DNA of 62,093 nucleotides from an uncultured bacterium. GTDB lineage: Bacteria; Zixibacteria; MSB-5A5; GN15; FEB-12. Positions within the stretch are counted from its first letter, which is position 1; each line of letters starts with the position of its first letter. The stretch spans positions 1-62,093 of the forward strand of contig CBDVDR010000020.1 in NCBI GenBank assembly GCA_965372795.1. Reading direction: 5' to 3'. This document shows positions 27,340-53,950 of this stretch, in pieces. The position numbers were made by a program, and so were the translations under genes. The notes beneath the pieces are model-generated. The model was not told the DNA's origin. It was given only the letters and a program-made list of their open reading frames with translations, and ran no database searches.

Positions 27340-27809
27340 TTTGCAATCAGACAGATTGCCGAGACTGCGATGCCCTCTTCTCTGCCGGTGAAACCTAATT
27401 TTTCGGTGGTAGTTGCTTTAACACTAACCTGATCCAGATCAAGCCGTAAAATTTCTGCGATGCGCTGACGGATTGAAATAATATGCGGAGCAAACTTCGG
27501 CTGTTCAGCCATGATCGTAGAATCAATATTTATAATCTTATTGTAACCATTTTCTGATAAAATTTTATGCACTTCTTTTAATAACTTCGCTGAATCAGCA
27601 TCTTTGAACTTCTGATCCAAGGGTGGAAAATGCTGCCCAATATCCCCCAATGCTGCCGCTCCCAGAAGAGCATCCATTATCGCATGAAGCAACACATCGG
27701 CATCGCTGTGACCCTCAAGACCTTTTTCAAACGGAATAGTCACTCCGCCGATAATCAGCTTGCGATTCTCTACTAACCGATGAACATCAAATCCGTAACC
27801 GACTCTCAT
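27336..27809 (-). CDS. ispF: 2-C-methyl-D-erythritol 2,4-cyclodiphosphate synthase
   Basis: [28 protein letters not shown]. Confidence 0.97.
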
Positions 27810-28501
27810 TATTGACCTGTCTCTTTTTTAAGGATCGCCTCAACAATCAGCAGATCCTCAGAATTAGTAACTTTCATATTCAAACCGGAGGGCTCGACAA
27901 TTGTCACTTTAAACCCTCGCTGTTCAATTAACGAAGCGTCATCGGTAAAGTCGACTTTTTTATTTTCAGCCTCTTTATGAGCTTCCATAATCAGATCGTA
28001 TTGAAAAACCTGCGGAGTTTCGGCATTATACAGATTTTCGCGGTCAACTGTTGAGATTATATGATTTTCAACCACCCGTTTCATGGTGTCTCTGGTTTTT
28101 GAGGCTATTATCACTGCCCGTTCGGTTTTGGCGGTTTCGATAGCTCGGTCTATATCATTCGGTTGAATCAACACTCGGGCGCCGTCATGGATCGCTACCA
28201 CCGAAGTCGAGGTCGGGATTGCCTTGAGTCCGTTTAGGACCGATTCCTGTCTGGTTTCTCCACCTTTGATAATTTTGGATACTTTACTGAACCCGTACGG
28301 ATCGACAACATGTTCTGAGGTATACAACAGATAATCTTCCGCTACGACTAATACGATATTGTTAATTTGACTGGCTTTTTCAAATCTTTCGATTGCCCAT
28401 GATAGAAGTGGTCGACCGCAGACGGTTTTGAACTGTTTGGGAACCTCTCCCCCGAATCTTTTACCTGATCCGGCGGCAACGATAATGGCAGAATTCTTCA
28501 T
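27809..28501 (-). CDS. ispD: 2-C-methyl-D-erythritol 4-phosphate cytidylyltransferase
   Basis: [37 protein letters not shown]. Confidence 0.96.
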
Positions 28502-28571
28502 ACTCCGAATATGAAACGATATGGCGTATAAGTCAACTTAAGAGATATGAAGGTGATATTTATTGAACTAA

Positions 28572-28958
28572 TCAAATAAAGTAAAATACTAATACTAATA
28601 TTTCAAAACATACAACTGGATAAATGAAAATTTTCTTTTTTCTTTTCAAATTAGATAAGCAATATTCTATTCTATCTGGTATATTTAATTTTTCTACCCA
28701 CATTATAATATTTACTATAAAAAAAAGTATAACCATAATTATATTAATTATCATTATAGTATCTTTCATAAGTTGTTCTAAAGATTTTTCAGCCAAAATT
28801 TCTTCTAAAATCACCGGAATTCCAATTCGTCTTCTGATAAAAATATAAATTCCTAAAAGAAATAATGAACTTAAATACATGAAGATTGTAAATACTATCT
28901 CTTTAAATTTTCTTACGTGTTCATCTTGAATTGTATTTTCACTTTGTTTGTTTTCCAT
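28572..28958 (-). CDS. Hypothetical membrane protein (array 1 cargo)
   Basis: AT-rich, three TM segments; start reassigned to ATG 28958 (SD AGAGG) because the longer ORF runs into the repeat. Confidence 0.65.
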   Translation of the reverse strand: MENKQSENTIQDEHVRKFKEIVFTIFMYLSSLFLLGIYIFIRRRIGIPVILEEILAEKSLEQLMKDTIMIINIIMVILFFIVNIIMWVEKLNIPDRIEYCLSNLKRKKKIFIYPVVCFEILVLVFYFI

Positions 28959-28982
28959 CGAACCTCTATATCTCTGTGACCC

Positions 28983-29054
28983 GCAGACGCCCTCGTCTGC
29001 CCCTTTCAATAATTGTCAGAAGCACATCCGCCTAGGCGGACTGACCTACTCAAC
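28983..29054. repeat. REP-like doublet R1
   Basis: GCAGACG-CCCT-CGTCTGC hairpin plus GTCAGAAGC...CTGAC-CTAC-TCAAC, with nested palindrome TCCGCCTAGGCGGA. Confidence 0.85.
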
Positions 29055-29056
29055 TA

Positions 29057-29962
29057 TTACCACTTTATCGGAACAAATTCTGATTTAAATGTGTTATCAT
29101 CTATATTTCCGATGATAATAACAAGTGTATCTCTGGCTTCTGCAAATGAGTTTATCCAAAAGGGTGATTTATAATTTGTTATTTTTTCTAATCCTTTATC
29201 TTTAGAATACATCCAAATGTTAGCTAAATCATCGTCAGTAAAATTTCTTCTAAGAAATAAAACAGGAAGGTTAGAGTTTTTTTGGTAAGGTCCAACATCA
29301 TGCGTTTGAGTAAAATAGGGTACATCTAAATAGTTTTTATTAATATCATAAATTCCAATATTGGAATAAGATTCATCTCCATCTGGATTATCTACACTTA
29401 TTTCCAAGAGTAAATTTTTCCCATCTCCAGAAAAACCTGAAATATTTGTATTATCAACAGAAAGTAATGTATCAACACTCTCTTGTCCAATTTTAACTAA
29501 TAATGTTCCTCCTTTTAAACCTGTTGTAGAAAAAGTTATCAAAGAGTCTTTCATGTTTACATCATAAATATCCGTAAATATTTGAAATCTATTCGAATCA
29601 GTCATGCATGAAGTGAAAAAAGTATCAATGACATTAGACTCAGAAATTGTAAGCTCAATGAAATAATAACAATATTCATCATCATTAATATAATAAAATT
29701 TATTAGGATCTTTTCCTACAATTCTTGAATCTGTATAAATAGAATCAAGAACAGTATAATCGATATAATTGTTTGAATCATATTCGACTACATAATATTT
29801 ATTTAATTCTGTCTTAGAATCCCTTTCTTTAAATAAAAAGACATATTTTATTTTCACAAATTCTCTTAAGTTAATAGAGTTTTCAGTAGAACAAGCGATA
29901 ATATTTATTAAGAGAGATATAATAAATAATATATAATATTTTCTAATGCATTTGATTTTCAT
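29057..29962 (-). CDS. Hypothetical lipoprotein (array 1 cargo)
   Basis: SD GGAGG before ATG 29962; signal peptide with lipobox-like IIAC; beta-rich body. Confidence 0.7.
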   Translation of the reverse strand: MKIKCIRKYYILFIISLLINIIACSTENSINLREFVKIKYVFLFKERDSKTELNKYYVVEYDSNNYIDYTVLDSIYTDSRIVGKDPNKFYYINDDEYCYYFIELTISESNVIDTFFTSCMTDSNRFQIFTDIYDVNMKDSLITFSTTGLKGGTLLVKIGQESVDTLLSVDNTNISGFSGDGKNLLLEISVDNPDGDESYSNIGIYDINKNYLDVPYFTQTHDVGPYQKNSNLPVLFLRRNFTDDDLANIWMYSKDKGLEKITNYKSPFWINSFAEARDTLVIIIGNIDDNTFKSEFVPIKW

Positions 29963-29976
29963 AACCTCCGTTATTG

Positions 29977-30043
29977 GCAGACGCCCTCGTCTACCCCGTT
30001 CTCTTATGATGTCAGGAGCGCACGGCTCCAAACCTACTCAAAC
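29977..30043. repeat. REP-like doublet R2
   Basis: GCAGACG-CCCT-CGTCTAC plus GTCAGGAGC-GCACG-GCTCCAAAC-CTAC-TCAAAC. Confidence 0.85.
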
Positions 30044-30055
30044 TAAATTTTAAAT

Positions 30056-30220
30056 TCAATTTCTATTTAAAAAGGATCCTAGTAATACTAGAACAAATGT
30101 AATACTAAATAGAATAATTCCTATATAGTTAGGAGGGGATAATATTATTATCAAACAGAAAAATATTGTACTAATAATTAAAGTAGCTAATATTATAAGC
30201 AGTCTTTTTTTTTGATCCAT
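30056..30220 (-). CDS. Small two-TM membrane protein, 54 aa, not in the ORF track (array 1 cargo)
   Basis: MDQKKRLLIILATLIISTIFFCLIIILSPPNYIGIILFSITFVLVLLGSFLNRN*; fills the interval between R3 and R2; purine-rich GGAAGAAGA before ATG. Confidence 0.6.
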   Translation of the reverse strand: MDQKKRLLIILATLIISTIFFCLIIILSPPNYIGIILFSITFVLVLLGSFLNRN

Positions 30221-30236
30221 TCTTCTTCCATAGTCA

Positions 30237-30300
30237 GCAGACGTCCTCGTCTGCCCCGTTCAATAATTGTCAGGAGCACACGGCTCTTGACCTACTCGAC
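30237..30300. repeat. REP-like doublet R3
   Basis: GCAGACG-TCCT-CGTCTGC plus GTCAGGAGC-ACACG-GCTCTTGAC-CTAC-TCGAC. Confidence 0.85.
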
Positions 30301-30329
30301 TATATTTAATTGCTGTAATTTCATTTTCA

Positions 30330-31010
30330 TTATTTTAATAATTCATCTTCCCACTTTTTTTGACTTTCATTCAATTCTATAACAATATCATCTAACTCAT
30401 TATATTCTATAAATATCTTGTTATATTCTGATACATCCAGAATTGGTTTTAATGTTGGACCGATTACATACAGTATTTTCATTGACATAATCATTAGTCT
30501 TATTAAAATTTGTCCCAATGATAATATTAACATGTCATCTATTACTGGATTCATTCTTGAAACAGAAGAACATTTCTCTACAAACCGTGAATTAGCATGA
30601 GTTACATCACTCCAATCAGAATATGTGTCCTCCCAAGTAGGTATCCCTTGACTTTCAAAGAATTTACCAATAGTCTGGGGTCTAATTTCTTTGCCTCTTA
30701 ACCATTTTTCATATTCATCGCTGTTTTTTGAAAGATAAAAGAATAGGTGAGCATATTCCAAATACCACCTTAGCAAAACGATAGATTCAGAAATGTTACC
30801 ATTCTTTAGAATTAATATAATTGCATCTGTTGATTCGTAGCTTATTCGATTAAACTGCAGTGCCGTTTCAATAAAATTGTCATTTTTGTGGCCGTTCTCT
30901 TTAATAATTTTGGATAGAGTTTTTCCACATAAATTTGTTAGTTTCTTAATTCTTTCTACTGTCTCAACCAATTCAGAAAGTTCAGATTGAAGTATTTTTT
31001 CAAATTTCAT
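30330..31010 (-). CDS. Hypothetical protein, DUF5677-like (array 1 cargo)
   Basis: LLRWYLE and Y..WSDVTHAN motifs; start at MKFEKIL behind AGAAGGAAAG. Confidence 0.6.
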   Translation of the reverse strand: MKFEKILQSELSELVETVERIKKLTNLCGKTLSKIIKENGHKNDNFIETALQFNRISYESTDAIILILKNGNISESIVLLRWYLEYAHLFFYLSKNSDEYEKWLRGKEIRPQTIGKFFESQGIPTWEDTYSDWSDVTHANSRFVEKCSSVSRMNPVIDDMLILSLGQILIRLMIMSMKILYVIGPTLKPILDVSEYNKIFIEYNELDDIVIELNESQKKWEDELLK

Positions 31011-31038
31011 TTCTTTCCTTCTTTCAAAAACTACTATT

Positions 31039-31959
31039 TTAATTTTCAAGCATCGAAAACAGTGAAACTATATGTTCTTCTTCTTTTTCAAAACATGTAT
31101 GCAATTTGTAGTCGGAGATTATAGCTTCTAGAAAGTCTCTTCTTCCATGTGCTACAAATCGTTTTGCTCGTTTAATCATTCCTGAACCAAGTTGAATAAG
31201 GAATTCAGGTGGAAGCGTTTTACTAATGGATTTGTCCGTTGCAACGACCATAATCCTTCCTGATATTGGAAAGATGAACTCATTTAAACACCTTTTTAGA
31301 TCATGGTCATATACACTTCTTGTCACAATTGGATTGTCACCGACTAAATTCCAATTACTCCCATCACCAGCATATAAAAACTTCCAATTTCGTAATTGAT
31401 CTGACCAATTTTTCTCAATAAACGGTGCAAAAGGTGCTATCAACCTTGTGTTTTTTTTGAAAGCTGGTGACTCTCTGAGCTTAGCTTTTACTTCCTCAGG
31501 AGCATCTTGTCCTTGCTTATCTGTCAAGGAAACAAATGGTAGCTCACCATTCATATTGAATATTTCATTTGACAACTTATCTATATGTTTAGAATTACTC
31601 GGTAATCTCCAATGAAGAATTAGCAGAAAATTGAATAGATGCATTTTATCAGGAAGTTCAATTGCTTTTTGGGGTTGTGATTCTCGAATTCTATCAAGTG
31701 TTTTCCAAAAACTATTCTCGGTTTTTGTATATAGTTTTTCCAAAGAGTCTGATTTCTCACCATTCTCAAGAACAATGGTATTCAGATCGTTCATAAAAAA
31801 TAAATTACCAGGCGGCAATGGATCCGGTAAAATTCTGTCTTCTTGTTTGTCATAGACATATAGAAGATTTTGAGAATTTGTAAAACCCTCAAGGTAATAT
31901 CTGGGTAAATAATGATGCTTTTTACTTCGATTATTTTTTTTAGATTTTTTCATAGTCAT
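31039..31959 (-). CDS. DUF4238 family protein (array 1 cargo)
   Basis: N-terminal KKHHYLPRYYLEGF, later GDNPIV and FPIS motifs. Confidence 0.8.
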   Translation of the reverse strand: MTMKKSKKNNRSKKHHYLPRYYLEGFTNSQNLLYVYDKQEDRILPDPLPPGNLFFMNDLNTIVLENGEKSDSLEKLYTKTENSFWKTLDRIRESQPQKAIELPDKMHLFNFLLILHWRLPSNSKHIDKLSNEIFNMNGELPFVSLTDKQGQDAPEEVKAKLRESPAFKKNTRLIAPFAPFIEKNWSDQLRNWKFLYAGDGSNWNLVGDNPIVTRSVYDHDLKRCLNEFIFPISGRIMVVATDKSISKTLPPEFLIQLGSGMIKRAKRFVAHGRRDFLEAIISDYKLHTCFEKEEEHIVSLFSMLEN

Positions 31960-32062
31960 AATTCATTTTCCCCCGACTACCCCACCACTTGCTATGGCAT
32001 AAGTAATTATCTTCACACTTTTTCACCGAATTAATCCTCCTGCGTATTCTCATCATGTGATA

Positions 32063-32091
32063 AATATATAAAAAATAGAATAAAACATCAA
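32063..32091 (-). promoter_or_regulatory. Putative sigma70 promoter heading array 1
   Basis: Minus strand TTGATG-N17-TATATT. Confidence 0.5.
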
Positions 32092-32110
32092 CTTAATAAC
32101 ACAAGTTCAA

Positions 32111-32171
32111 GTATGGCAGCATCCCTGTGATGCTGCCAAAAAATGGCGGGATCGCAGGGATCCCGCCCTAC
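32111..32171. repeat. Inverted REP doublet (REPIN-like)
   Basis: GTAT-GGCAGCATC-CCTGT-GATGCTGCC-AAAAAAT-GGCGGGATC-GCAGG-GATCCCGCC-CTAC. Confidence 0.85.
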
Positions 32172-32190
32172 TTAAGCAATCACTCCTGTG

Positions 32191-32269
32191 CAAATTCACT
32201 ACCTAATCATTGATGATTACGATTCTATCACCCTTTATAAAAGGAGGCACGAAGAGCTATGTCCAAAAT
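32191..32269. repeat. Conserved array-leader block, copy 1
   Basis: Ungapped match to 53271..53349; the last 39 nt are 31/39 identical by manual count. Confidence 0.7.
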
Positions 32270-32346
32270 TCTAACCACAAAAATTGAGAAACCAAACTAA
32301 ATGAAAAACACAAAATGTTCCTTTAAAGTACTTTAAGTACAAAAGT

Positions 32347-32399
32347 GAGCAAACGAACCCATTTCTGCGTATTCAAATGAAGCCGTATAAGTTACATGG
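32347..32399. repeat. 53-bp conserved site, copy 1
   Basis: GAGCAAACGAACCCATTT-N4-GTA-N20-TTAC; also at 53601 and 53814. Confidence 0.75.
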
Positions 32400-32455
32400 A
32401 AAAACAATGAAGATTTGATATAAAAACACACACAATGTGTGTCACACGAAGTGTG

Positions 32456-33493
32456 CTATAGGATCAGCATTGCATCGCCATAACTATAAAACCGCATCTC
32501 GTTTTTGATCGCTTGTTCATAGGCTTCGATAATCTTCTCACGCCCTGCAAATGCTGAAATCAATATCAACAGCGAAGATTTTGGCAGATGGAAATTTGTT
32601 ACCAGATGATCGACAACTTTAAATTTATAACCCGGCTTGATATACAAATTAACCAATCCACTATGAGGTTGAATCATGTTCGATACAAACGGAGCCGACT
32701 CAATATTCCGCACTGAGGTTGTCCCGACGGCGAAAATTTTTCCTTTGTTTTGTCTGACTTTGTTAATCGTATCTGTTGCCGACTTTGTCAACTCGGCCAT
32801 TTCCGGATCAACGCTGTGATCATGAATATTATCCACCGACACCGGCTTGAATGTCCCCGGTCCGACATGAAGGGTCGTCTGCACAATCTTCACACCCTTA
32901 CTATTCAAACTATCAATTATCGGCTTTGTAAAATGAAATCCGGCTGTCGGCGCGGCAACTGCCCCGACTTTTTCTTTATCAGCAAACAGCGTTTGATACC
33001 GCCTGATATCGGAGGTCGCATCGGTCCGTTTGATATACTGTGGCAAAGGCACATGCCCGAATTTCGAAATTATTTTCTCACGCTGATTAGTCGAATCAAA
33101 TCGTATCTGCCAGCGCCCTTCCCCCAAATTTTTCAAAAGCTCCAACGAATATTTTTCAAAACAGATCCGTTCGTTTTCTTTTAACCGTCTCGAGGGTCTC
33201 GCCAAACACTCCCAAATTTCCTCCTGCGATTCTAAATTCCGTCTGACCAGAAAAATCTCAACCTCGGCTCCGCTCTCACGATTCCCGATCAGTCTCGCTT
33301 TGAAAACTTTGGTATTATTAATAACCAGCGCATCCCCTTCAGAAAGATAATTTAAAATATCTTTAAAAGGATGGATTTCAATCTCACCGCTTATCCGGTT
33401 GAGCACCATCAAACGCGATTCATCCCGTTTCTGAGTTGGAAACTGGGCGATTAGTTTATTGGGCAGCTGATAGTCGAACTTTTTAATATCCAT
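32456..33493 (-). CDS. queA: S-adenosylmethionine:tRNA ribosyltransferase-isomerase
   Basis: LIAQFP, GHVPLPQYI, AAPTAGFHF, LHVGPGTF, TNFHLPKSSL, FYSYGDAM. Confidence 0.97.
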   Translation of the reverse strand: MDIKKFDYQLPNKLIAQFPTQKRDESRLMVLNRISGEIEIHPFKDILNYLSEGDALVINNTKVFKARLIGNRESGAEVEIFLVRRNLESQEEIWECLARPSRRLKENERICFEKYSLELLKNLGEGRWQIRFDSTNQREKIISKFGHVPLPQYIKRTDATSDIRRYQTLFADKEKVGAVAAPTAGFHFTKPIIDSLNSKGVKIVQTTLHVGPGTFKPVSVDNIHDHSVDPEMAELTKSATDTINKVRQNKGKIFAVGTTSVRNIESAPFVSNMIQPHSGLVNLYIKPGYKFKVVDHLVTNFHLPKSSLLILISAFAGREKIIEAYEQAIKNEMRFYSYGDAMLIL

Positions 33494-33572: not shown

Positions 33573-33866
33573 CTATGGGTGCTTTTGGAAAATGGTCAGC
33601 CGGTCAATCCAGATTTGTGCCAGACTTTTCTGTTCCATTGATAGAGATTTGGGAAGTACATCACTTTTTATATATTCTTCGAGTCCCTCAAGAGCCACTC
33701 TGGTATCTTCAACCGTTAAAATCTCTCCGGTCGACTCTTTTAATTTATCCCGAAATTTGATCGTTTCAGTGATTAATACAGCCACGGTCCCTGATGGATC
33801 AGTAGCCTTTTCAAAAATCTGTTCCCCCAACACCCGCATCATAAATTTTATCTTATCATTTGACAT
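33573..33866 (-). CDS. Hypothetical protein
   Basis: 97-aa ORF with SD AGAGGA, co-oriented between ruvB and queA. Confidence 0.6.
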   Translation of the reverse strand: MSNDKIKFMMRVLGEQIFEKATDPSGTVAVLITETIKFRDKLKESTGEILTVEDTRVALEGLEEYIKSDVLPKSLSMEQKSLAQIWIDRLTIFQKHP

Positions 33867-50224: not shown

Positions 50225-51655
50225 TTATGAATCAATTACTTCTGTCCATTGCGAATAATGTTTCTTAGTTGATAAATCAGTTGCTTTTTTATTAAGCTTT
50301 CCGGTCATGGCCAATGCTTCTAATTTCCATGAAATTTCATATTGATAATTTTTGTTGTCTTCTTTTAAAAGTAAGTATCCTTGTTTAGAGTAACTTCTTA
50401 GAAGTGTATCAAAGCCAGATGCAGATTTGTAGCCAAATATTTTATAATTATAATTGGAAACAAACCCTTTTAAATATAATTTTGATAATATTTTCTTATC
50501 TTTAGGTTTCATTATAAGTTCAGAAGTTTCTTCTTCACAAAATTCAAATAAATATCTAAATGTATCATCAATTGATAATTGGTCATATAAAATAATATAT
50601 TGAAAGGCTCTAAATGTTAAATCTGTGTATATTCGAAATGTTTCCCTAAGTTCAAAATGAGCAAATTCATAGATCATCAAGTGAGATTTTTCATCTAGTG
50701 GAGTCATGAATTTGTAATTATTTGTGTATTCAAGATGATATCTTTTTTTTCTAATTTTGTTCTTTTGACTAGTGATTTCTTTAATCATTTCAGGATCATT
50801 AATGCTAAACATTCTTGATCTTGTATCAATTGCGGTAAGGAAAGCTTTATTCGACAATCGATTAAGTCTTATTTGAGTACCGGTAAAAAAACCTCTCAAA
50901 CGTCGACTTCTCACATTTAAATTGTTCCCTAACTCTCTGTTTCCAATAAGAATCCAATGGACGTTTTCTTTTATCAAAAAATCATCTCTAATCTCATCAA
51001 GAATATTGACTATTTGATTACTATCAACAATATCAAGGTTATCAATCAAAAGAAAGACACCATCATATCCACTATATTTTAAGAAAATTTGTAAAATAAA
51101 ATCAAAAGCATAAATAGGATCTCTCAATTCCTGAAATGAATAAGTCGCTGATTGTTTCGAAAATTGTCCGCCAGATCCTAAAAAAGTAGCACCTAATGAA
51201 CCACTAGTAGTTGAAACTTGTTTTTTTATTTTTATCCAATATTCTAAATGATCTAATAGTTCATCAGGGATATCTAATTCATTTTCTCTGTAGTAATTAT
51301 AGATATTATTTGACAGAACTTTAGTAATTTTATAAGTAAATGATTCATAGTTATCATCATTATTTATTTGAATTGATCGAAATGAAGGTAATATTAATTG
51401 ATTTTTTTCAATATCAAGTTCTCCATTTATTTGTGGTCGATAACATATATATTGGCAAATATTTATAAAGCTCGTTTTCCCTACTCCTACATCATCACTT
51501 ATTATCTTTATAGATCTTTTTTCACCTAAAATTTCAGAAATATAAGTATTGATTTCAATTTCCCTTCCCAACAATAACTTCTTTCCATCTGCATTTATTT
51601 GAAGAGGGTCACAGAAATAGATATTTTTATTAAATCCTAGTAATTTCCAATTCAT
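50225..51655 (-). CDS. P-loop NTPase with probable C-terminal winged helix (array 2 cargo)
   Basis: LLGRE, Walker A-like SDDVGVGKTS, Walker B LLIDNLD; AT-rich. Confidence 0.7.
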   Translation of the reverse strand: MNWKLLGFNKNIYFCDPLQINADGKKLLLGREIEINTYISEILGEKRSIKIISDDVGVGKTSFINICQYICYRPQINGELDIEKNQLILPSFRSIQINNDDNYESFTYKITKVLSNNIYNYYRENELDIPDELLDHLEYWIKIKKQVSTTSGSLGATFLGSGGQFSKQSATYSFQELRDPIYAFDFILQIFLKYSGYDGVFLLIDNLDIVDSNQIVNILDEIRDDFLIKENVHWILIGNRELGNNLNVRSRRLRGFFTGTQIRLNRLSNKAFLTAIDTRSRMFSINDPEMIKEITSQKNKIRKKRYHLEYTNNYKFMTPLDEKSHLMIYEFAHFELRETFRIYTDLTFRAFQYIILYDQLSIDDTFRYLFEFCEEETSELIMKPKDKKILSKLYLKGFVSNYNYKIFGYKSASGFDTLLRSYSKQGYLLLKEDNKNYQYEISWKLEALAMTGKLNKKATDLSTKKHYSQWTEVIDS

Positions 51656-51698: not shown

Positions 51699-51760
51699 GT
51701 AGGTCGAAACCCCTGCGGTTTCGACAATTGTTCGGCAGGATCGCAAGGATCCTGCCCTAC
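51699..51760. repeat. Intact inverted REP doublet (REPIN-like)
   Basis: GTAG-GTCGAAACC-CCTGC-GGTTTCGAC-AATTGTTC-GGCAGGATC-GCAAG-GATCCTGCC-CTAC. Confidence 0.9.
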
Positions 51761-51776
51761 ATGGTCTGACCTTTAT

Positions 51777-52394
51777 CTAATCTTTTCTATATAATTCTAT
51801 TGTAACAAATTCATCTTCTATCTTTGTACAATAAATATTGAAAACCATATCTCCTATTATCAAAGGACTATATTTATTGAGAGAGAGAGGTAAAAAATAA
51901 CGATATACCACACAATTTGAATCTAAAGGATCACTGAAATACAAATCATAACCATAACATGTATCAATGTATATTGTTAAATGACTATAACCTTCTTTTC
52001 TCTTTTGACAGGCACCCGTTAAAATCTTACCATAAATTGAAATTTTGTCATTTCCAAAAGGTACGTCAAATTCTCCCCATAGTGTACCGAAGTCACGCAT
52101 TTGTTCGATTGAGTCTTTAAAAATATTAACTTCCGTTGTCATTTGTGACACTTGTTTCTGTAGACCATCTATTTTTGTGTCTTGATCAAGATAAATGCGG
52201 TCATATGACTTTCTTGTTTGGTCCAAAACAGATGGTAAAAATAAATACCAAGAGATTACTGCAGCTAAGCCAAATCCTGTAATAAAATACCAAGCTCTAT
52301 GTCGCTTACCGAACCAAATGTCTGTTTGTTTTGAAAGAGGATGTTTATCATATTCATTTTGATGAGAATCGAGTTTATTGTTTTCATCTTTCAT
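51777..52394 (-). CDS. Hypothetical membrane-anchored protein (array 2 cargo)
   Basis: 205 aa, one TM segment plus coiled coil; SD AAGGAG. Confidence 0.7.
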   Translation of the reverse strand: MKDENNKLDSHQNEYDKHPLSKQTDIWFGKRHRAWYFITGFGLAAVISWYLFLPSVLDQTRKSYDRIYLDQDTKIDGLQKQVSQMTTEVNIFKDSIEQMRDFGTLWGEFDVPFGNDKISIYGKILTGACQKRKEGYSHLTIYIDTCYGYDLYFSDPLDSNCVVYRYFLPLSLNKYSPLIIGDMVFNIYCTKIEDEFVTIELYRKD

Positions 52395-53374: not shown

Positions 53375-53924
53375 GTGGGGTCGAGTCTGCCTGGGCGGGC
53401 TCGACGCCTTCAACATTAATGGCTGTCAGGCAGAGTCGCCTCACAGTTTTCGTAGGGCAGAACCCCGCCTTTGGCGGACTATTAGCCTTTAGTGGTTCTG
53501 CCAATCCGTCAGGAGCACAGAGCACCTGACCTACTCAACCTACAAAGAGAAAACCACACGAAGTATGCGAAGTATACAAAAACATGCAAAACATAAAAGT
53601 GAGCAAACGAATCCATTTCGCTGTACTGGACAACCCTCCAATGACTTACAACGATTTATTGTCGAAACTGCAGGAGTTTCGACCTACTCAACTACGAAGA
53701 TTGGGGCAGACGAGCACACGATGTGTGGTTGGCGTCTGCCGCCCACGAAAACATCGTCAGAAAAAAACACACGAAGTGTGCGAAGTATACGAAGTGTGCG
53801 AAAGTGTAAAAATGAGCAAACGAACCCATTTCGCTGTTAAAGCATGTCAGAGAATATGTTACAGCGAAAAATACCTATTATAGGAAAATTGGCAGATGTC
53901 AGGAGCACAGGGCTCCTGACCTAC
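53375..53924. repeat. Dense cluster of REP-like hairpins with two 53-bp sites
   Basis: REP hairpins at 53375-53405, 53452-53534 (doublet), 53661-53687, 53703-53746 and 53898-53924; 53-bp sites at 53601-53653 and 53814-53866. Confidence 0.85.
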
Positions 53925-53950
53925 TCAAGAAATCAAACAGGCTATGCCTG

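Follow-up and report, generated by a model that had tools for sequence, protein, structure and literature searches.

What are the structured repeats that separate the genes of a small AT-rich block between queA and ispD in an uncultured member of the Zixibacteria, and did they have a part in bringing those genes together? The block lies on contig C20 of an assembly coded G000 (3.35 Mb in 69 contigs, G+C content (GC) 38%, 98.65% complete), and the window analyzed here is the stretch of that contig at its full length of 62,093 nucleotides (nt). A preliminary description, made from the sequence alone, had recognized two-hairpin repeats at three consecutive gene junctions, likened the block to an integron devoid of attC sites and proposed that the repeats delimit promoterless single-gene cassettes. 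On balance, our analysis favors a reading in which mosaics of repetitive extragenic palindromic (REP) sequences, resembling bacterial interspersed mosaic elements (BIMEs), occupy a small accessory, partly defence-like islet at a permissive queA-ispD junction. That the repeats form an integron-like gene-capture system is possible but rather improbable.

An AT-rich islet between queA and ispD

Matches to queA, 48-65% identical, were found in 30 of the 31 genomes searched, and the gene leads directly into ispD-ispF-dedA at 28 of the 29 loci examined in relatives, with queA-ispD spacers of mostly ~45-60 nt. Because queA adjoins ispD in nearly all of these loci, the five-gene AT-rich block of G000 is, judged by gene order, a lineage-specific insertion. 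The block measures 3.95 kb and the GC of its genes (c1 to c5) is 0.21-0.34, with 0.43-0.44 in the flanking genes and 0.38 in the genome. All five genes are co-oriented with queA and ispD on the minus strand. Gene calls throughout the genome are longest-open-reading-frame (ORF) calls, not gene-finder output. The features of the locus, from queA to ispD, are as follows.

32456-33493, minus strand: queA, ORF; conserved upstream flank of the insertion
32425-32456, minus strand: E module, CACAC..GTGTG hairpins directly 3' of the queA stop codon and then a T run, terminator-like (terminator-like site 32443-32425)
32340-32365, strand unassigned: copy of the D module (..AAAAGTGAGCAAACGAACCCATTT..), a repeated k-mer patch whose seed occurs 54 times in the genome
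32113-32176, minus strand: head doublet upstream of c1, two inverted GTAG-type hairpins, similar to a BIME or to a REP doublet forming hairpins (REPIN), from repeat search and folding
31039-31959, minus strand: c1, 306 amino acids (aa), DUF4238 (Pfam PF14022, E 8e-26)
30330-31010, minus strand: c2, 226 aa, weak DUF5677 match (Pfam, 25 bits, under the 27.1 cut-off)
30237-30300, minus strand: doublet r3, c2-c3 junction; on the coding strand GAGTAGG and an A hairpin, a spacer and the B hairpin GCAGACG-AGGA-CGTCTGC
30056-30220, minus strand: c3, hydrophobic 54-aa ORF without a family (ORF call and Pfam scan)
29977-30043, minus strand: doublet r2, c3-c4 junction; a GGAGG motif lies between its B hairpin and the c4 ATG
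29057-29962, minus strand: c4, 301 aa, without a family (ORF call and Pfam scan)
28983-29054, minus strand: doublet r1, c4-c5 junction; its A module is a nested-hairpin variant
28572-28958, minus strand: c5, hydrophobic 128-aa ORF without a family (ORF call and Pfam scan)
27809-28501, minus strand: ispD, ORF; conserved downstream flank of the insertion

Searches with PADLOC and PHROGs returned zero matches for c1-c5, and none of the five genes has a paralogue elsewhere in G000. Homologues of c4 are remote (21-25% identity) and confined to three of the 159 other genomes of the order, c1 has remote matches in one of these 159, and a scan of the genome collection for c1 gave 116 pattern matches, none of which was confirmed. 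A DUF4238 protein is reported to confer resistance to phage T7 (bioRxiv 10.1101/2021.01.21.427644). The N-terminus of c4 resembles, by eye, a lipoprotein signal, and c2 starts 28 nt after c1. The preliminary description had placed a single sigma70-like promoter at the head of the array; this was not confirmed, since promoter-like sites occur at chance level (23 versus 22.9 expected). Between ruvB and queA, a 97-aa ORF (33573-33866) keeps its position in most members of the family, at 34-64% identity.

The junction repeats are doublets of two unrelated hairpins

Our repeat search recovered the three repeats at the coordinates given for them in the preliminary description, each spanning 64-72 nt and comprising two hairpins. 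On the coding strand, the layout consists of TTGAGTAGG and a 9-bp stem with a 5-nt loop (module A), a spacer of ~14 nt and GCAGACG-AGGR-CGTCTGC (module B). Identity to the reference copy is 93% and 68% over the first 44 nt and 87% over 30 nt of the second module. The doublets follow the preceding stop codon by 2, 12 and 29 nt and end 24, 14 and 16 nt before the next ATG, so that the ranges of 2-29 and 14-24 nt reported earlier agree with the coordinates. Folded as DNA, r1-r3 each form two independent hairpins (z -3.3, -2.1 and -3.4 versus shuffles), and none of the three has a T run.

Two further aspects of the array were absent from the preliminary description: the head doublet at 32113-32176 and the repeat-free state of the c1-c2 and c5-ispD junctions. 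The head doublet folds at -23.6 kcal/mol (z -7.5), and a T run follows its first hairpin, giving a terminator-like site at 32167-32145. The four A hairpins of the array share one orientation, and they carry one or two stem mismatches, while many copies elsewhere in the genome are perfect. Aligned doublet copies have a conserved block with sharp, identical ends.

Several features set the array copies apart. Doublet r3 has its B module and spacer in common with r1 but resembles r2 in its A module, and the B-spacer-A junction sequence is confined to r1 and r3 (two matches in G000 and none in 30 relatives, allowing up to 3 mismatches). The flank CGTGGGCG, present in 23 of 27 B elements, is missing from four, among them the three B copies of the array. 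At the level of sequence comparison, these features show that the doublets of the array are locally related. Such local relatedness is compatible both with a small mobile doublet that inserted three times and with genes that inserted at a doublet.

Two dispersed REP families in the genome and the order

The preliminary description had identified the hairpins as GTAG-footed REPs, and scanning the genome established that they form a dispersed family. A hairpin-validated scan for module A gave 91 candidates (62 simple and 29 accepted by a looser 'nested' rule); that for module B gave 33, of which 27 were kept once the candidate at C6:10824 and five with long loops that lacked the flank motif had been dropped. 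The resulting copy numbers in G000 are 84-91 for A and 27 for B. Of these 118 elements, 105 lie outside the interior of long ORFs, and seven situated far within ORFs of more than 900 nt were dropped, leaving 111, of which 109 fall into 78 spacers. The REP-bearing spacers include 14 between divergent and 21 between convergent genes, with modules in both orientations.

Patterns in the nucleotide code of the International Union of Pure and Applied Chemistry (IUPAC) matched G000 36 times for A and 16 times for B, with no matches to reversed-pattern controls, and occurred in 24 (A) and 18 (B) of 31 genomes of the order. The stems of A covary (GTCAGGAGC, GGCAGGATC, GTCGAAACC, GGCAGCATC and others), with a constant CCTGY loop and a constant GTAGG foot that precedes the stem; module B has no GTAG foot. 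Further modules (CACACGAAGTGTG, AAACGAACCCA and GTCGGGTCAC...) are present in ~50 copies each and are combined with A and B in mosaic patches, which bring together modules A-E; the CACGAAGTGTG seed of the E module has 52 occurrences in the genome. No Rfam family matched the A/B repeats at the locus, the scan of 28400-32600 giving no match at E up to 1. The repeats are dispersed elements of the REP/BIME type and constitute a new family in a poorly known lineage.

Five of the seven A pairs less than 60 nt apart are inverted with feet outward (HH-type dimers), and those 0.4-6 kb apart comprise seven foot-outward, two foot-inward and nine same-direction pairs, numbers too small to conclude from orientation on cargo between dimer partners. 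A control over all 256 four-letter feet (GTAG, 59 hairpins; median, 16) was set aside in favor of the reversed-pattern controls because AT-rich feet gave more hairpins (AAAA, 495), and an unfiltered k-mer repeat map was dropped because AT-rich words dominated it. Elsewhere in the window, dense mosaic patches of A, B-long, D and E modules at 51699-51761 and 53449-53950 surround two AT-rich family-less ORFs (50225-51655 and 51777-52394).

The queA-ispD junction and its equivalents in relatives

The one relative in which queA and ispD are separated, G010 (GC ~54%, from another genus), has its own 3.2-kb insertion at this junction (G010:C2; L037 10800-14005), with unrelated cargo: HNOB, a small antisense ORF and an EamA transporter encoded on the opposite strand. 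Two ~150-nt direct mosaic repeats with B-type hairpins flank an inserted gene. In G004 and G005 the queA-ispD spacer holds one A or B hairpin and no cargo. A second junction gives a similar picture: two genes found side by side in 13 of 16 family loci are kept apart in G000 by 4.2 kb of REP patches and an AT-rich LRR-Roc-COR gene, and in a genome of the same genus the corresponding spacer contains only two B-containing repeats. At these junctions, REPs are thus present in the spacers whether or not there is cargo.

In the same-genus genome G001, queA was not found and ispD lies at a contig start, the contig breaking inside the gene; comparison of G001 DNA with the islet produced matches to REP modules only. 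A metagenome scan with queA yielded three loci, all 39-44% identical and thus too distant to be strains. A synteny test at C9 was uninterpretable because the flank gene has paralogues. The queA frame of G004 contains an inverted pair of A-type REPs (C47:3750-3813; locus L020) and yet stays open (392 aa, no stops); the match is ~40 residues longer than the query and resembles an in-frame intragenic REP dimer.

REP elements beside AT-rich genes

To the accumulation of REPs in an accessory islet several observations must be opposed, and these weigh against the reading we favor. In a test on spacers between genes of at least 120 aa, excluding the locus itself and scoring a flanking gene as AT-rich at GC <0.32, an AT-rich neighbor was present for 31 of 73 REP-bearing spacers and for 173 of 1968 others (odds ratio 7.7). 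This enrichment is not predicted by plain passive accumulation; in Pseudomonas, it is the older core regions that REPs mark, acquired DNA constituting 'REP deserts' (PMC3390384). Furthermore, REPs or direct mosaic repeats stand on both sides of several AT-rich genes elsewhere in the G000 genome. A fourth, degraded copy of the array doublet type, whose fold is lost (z 0.03), lies at C1:239868-239928; the AT-rich ORF just downstream of it has a REP at the opposite end as well. Each of the four copies of the doublet type is located 14-27 nt 5' of an AT-rich ORF and shares the orientation of that ORF, and this placement on C1 and in the array looks more unit-like than random colonization would.

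The strength of the association depends on how it is measured. Restricting the comparison to other spacers of at least 150 nt (72 of 716 with an AT-rich neighbor) gave an odds ratio of 6.6, and a REP was found within 400 nt of 27 of 150 AT-rich genes and of 95 of 2342 others. The effect was weaker with all ORFs and length-matched spacers (odds ratios of 2.3-3.4), and p-values for the association are overstated because neighboring elements are not independent. Fifteen of 18 intervals between neighboring A elements (0.4-6 kb) have GC ≤0.35; random segments with GC ≤0.335 make up 8.9% of draws. The 27 proteins scanned from REP-bounded intervals include NB-ARC, LRR-Roc-COR, KAP NTPase, HamA with a helicase, and HSDR_N, together with many that are family-less. 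The preliminary description had made its proposal depend on REPs not being equally common between core genes, and this was borne out in part: they are enriched beside AT-rich genes, but for 42 of the 73 REP-bearing spacers the genes on either side are ordinary in GC. In one relative, G013, ORFs adjacent to B elements were not lower in GC (0.540 versus 0.546, p 0.27; 55 versus 236 ORFs in 20 windows of 14-20 kb, with crude ORF calling).

At C2:291751-294859 of G000 (L049 1252-4360), HamA and a DEAD/Helicase_C protein form a Hachiman-like pair with GC 0.29-0.30 and REPs on both sides. At C13:49730-52347 (L043 12731-15348), 225-nt direct repeats, 91% identical and each with a B hairpin at its start, flank a family-less 516-aa gene.

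Transposases and integrases

Three matches to Y1_Tnp were found in the genome. One is a REP-associated tyrosine transposase (RAYT) of 173 aa at C1:111466-111987 (L003 1387-1908), scoring 90.5 bits against NCBIfam NF047646 REP_Tyr_transpos (cut-off 80), with HUH and YIHxNP motifs in its translation and a gene GC of 0.29. The preliminary description had suggested looking for such a gene flanked by the same REPs; the gene is there, but the repeats immediately next to it are different ones. Its immediate flanks are inverted copies of a ~45-nt hairpin repeat, GTCGGGTCAC...GACCCAAC, with ~50 copies in the genome, which may be its true cognate, and one A hairpin and one long B variant are situated 166-250 nt upstream. 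The second Y1 protein, encoded on contig C52, has 324 aa and a DnaA-C-like helix-turn-helix end and falls under the NF047646 cut-off. Its gene (L001 562-1536) lies between 36-nt inverted repeats and adjoins a truncated N-terminal fragment of a tyrosine recombinase at the contig start.

The negative part of the earlier comparison with integrons was sustained. No integron integrase was detected in the genome: the highest TIGR02249 score is 86.5 bits (cut-off 265), and the scores of all matches are XerC/D-like. A single bulged hairpin of the attC kind was not seen, no attC-specific model being used, and each repeat folds as two separate hairpins.

A model of the islet

Under the reading we favor, the spacers of the islet are filled by mosaics of the two dispersed REP families, A and B, and the queA-ispD junction would act as a permissive or hot-spot spacer that REPs colonize repeatedly. 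The three doublets probably trace back to a single local doublet, duplicated in the course of the islet's growth. They would lie inside a transcription unit, the following start codon being so close that little more than a ribosome-binding site fits in between, and since r1-r3 lack a T run, they are predicted to be transcribed as intercistronic stem-loops, as are classical REPs within operons, with read-through into ispD-ispF. In a review of these elements, REPs between co-directional genes are placed near the 3' end of the upstream ORF (Di Nocera 2013, PMC3733652). Any function of the doublets would probably be exerted at the level of RNA or DNA structure, rather than through dedicated cassette capture.

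Alternative explanations

The alternative that survives best, which we nonetheless hold to be rather unlikely, would make the doublets selected RNA elements of a polycistronic islet transcript, their stem-loops shielding upstream segments from 3' exonucleases and tuning the relative expression of the AT-rich genes while avoiding termination, so that the essential ispD-ispF would still be transcribed. It would account for the stop-to-ribosome-binding-site placement at three consecutive junctions and for two stable hairpins with no T run, whereas T runs do follow the REP and E hairpins located shortly downstream of queA; it is also consistent with the co-orientation of all inserted genes with ispD and with the location of all four copies of the doublet type directly 5' of an ORF. 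REPs are thought to work as RNA elements (PMC3733652). The same modules are found, however, in divergent (14 of 78) and convergent (21 of 78) spacers and in both orientations, so that their position may be incidental, and the copy on C1 has lost its fold (z 0.03).

Capture of REP-delimited cassettes, in a slightly broader form than that proposed in the preliminary description, we consider quite improbable. Here, gene-plus-doublet units would be inserted or excised at the doublets. The hairpin feet would be the target of a Y1/RAYT enzyme supplied in trans, or else Campbell-type recombination would take place between circular and chromosomal doublets; by both mechanisms, each gene would end up between direct repeats. 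The direct mosaic repeats around an inserted gene at queA-ispD in G010 agree with this expectation, whereas the c5-ispD and c1-c2 junctions of the islet have no repeat. The co-orientation of the A hairpins of the array and the sharp, identical ends of the conserved block speak for such units, but a small mobile doublet inserting three times would equally produce ends of this kind. The doublet junction sequence is private to the array, and r3 combines the B module and spacer of r1 with the A module of r2; on the other hand, no movement of such a unit was observed, the islet genes have no paralogues in G000 and the unit was not found in 30 relatives. The genome does encode a RAYT, yet its immediate flanks are of another repeat type, neither A nor B, and the array hairpins are decayed. 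The enrichment of REPs beside AT-rich genes (odds ratio 7.7), the low GC of 15 of 18 A-A intervals (≤0.35, versus 8.9% of random segments at ≤0.335) and the defence-like cargo of other REP-bracketed loci (HamA and helicase, NB-ARC, KAP NTPase) favor capture; against it stand the normal GC of the genes around 42 of the 73 REP-bearing spacers, the REPs without cargo at the same junctions in relatives and the failure to see the association for B elements in G013. Moreover, genes so rich in AT would first need to gain host REPs.

Finally, a misjoin of the AT-rich block into a metagenome-assembled contig at the repeats, conceivable in a 69-contig assembly in which short repeats can produce chimeric joins, is barely credible, given that queA and ispD keep their conserved order and orientation around the block, that the internal doublets are 68-93% alike with perfect stretches under 30 nt, too short and diverged to mislead an assembler, and that the same pattern recurs at other loci of the genome.

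Comparison with known systems and implications

Integron cassette arrays and integrase-less attC clusters consist of co-oriented, tightly packed and mostly single-gene units of unknown function, with structured repeats of 60-70 nt between them. The array described here is alike in packing, co-orientation and structured repeats, but it differs in having no IntI, no attC core sites and repeats that belong to families dispersed over the genome. In the minimal mobile elements of Neisseria, different whole genes are found between the same conserved pair, with spacers rich in mosaic repeats, and exchange presumably follows transformation, by way of homologous recombination within the genes on either side. 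The queA-ispD junction, with different cargo in G000 and G010, is similar in this respect. Mosaic intergenic regions of Neisseria are mentioned in the review of REP elements (PMC3733652).

The closest resemblance is to the GTAG-tagged REP/BIME elements of E. coli and Pseudomonas described in that review (PMC3733652). Like them, module A is a short imperfect palindrome, rich in GC and mostly intergenic, whose GTAG foot is unpaired, and the elements form head-to-head dimers and heterodimers with other motifs and lie close behind the upstream stop codon in co-directional pairs. They depart from those elements in the conservation of foot and loop across a whole order and in a second module without a GTAG foot, and their copy number (~85-90 for A, 27 for B) is lower than that of classical REP families, for which more than 100 copies are typical. 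They also differ from the Pseudomonas REPs, which avoid acquired DNA (PMC3390384), in being enriched beside AT-rich genes.

With the REPIN-RAYT system (Bertels and Rainey 2011), they have in common a single-copy RAYT-type Y1 gene, inverted REP pairs (32113-32176) and an inheritance that here looks vertical and lineage-wide. In contrast to that system, the RAYT gene of G000 lies between long inverted repeats of another family, in a terminal inverted repeat (TIR)-type arrangement (PMC3733652), and the array doublets join a GTAG hairpin to an unrelated hairpin instead of two inverted REPs. The review notes that RAYT genes may have unrelated inverted repeats as flanks, that REPs form heterodimers and that DNA can insert between dimer partners (PMC3733652).

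As it stands, the finding amounts to a new REP/BIME family and an ordinary accessory islet. These REPs are situated beside AT-rich, often defence-like genes, at junctions invaded independently in different genera, which is the opposite of the Pseudomonas 'REP desert' rule. It is conceivable, if unlikely, that REP mosaics serve as recombination substrates by which single accessory or defence genes are slotted into conserved operon junctions of the order; the REP hairpins would then be portable attachment sites, used by a RAYT-type enzyme or in short-homology recombination, and the array a stack of insertions. If gene gain and loss exactly at the hairpins were true, REPs would have a role in gene acquisition of a kind that has long been suspected and is undemonstrated.

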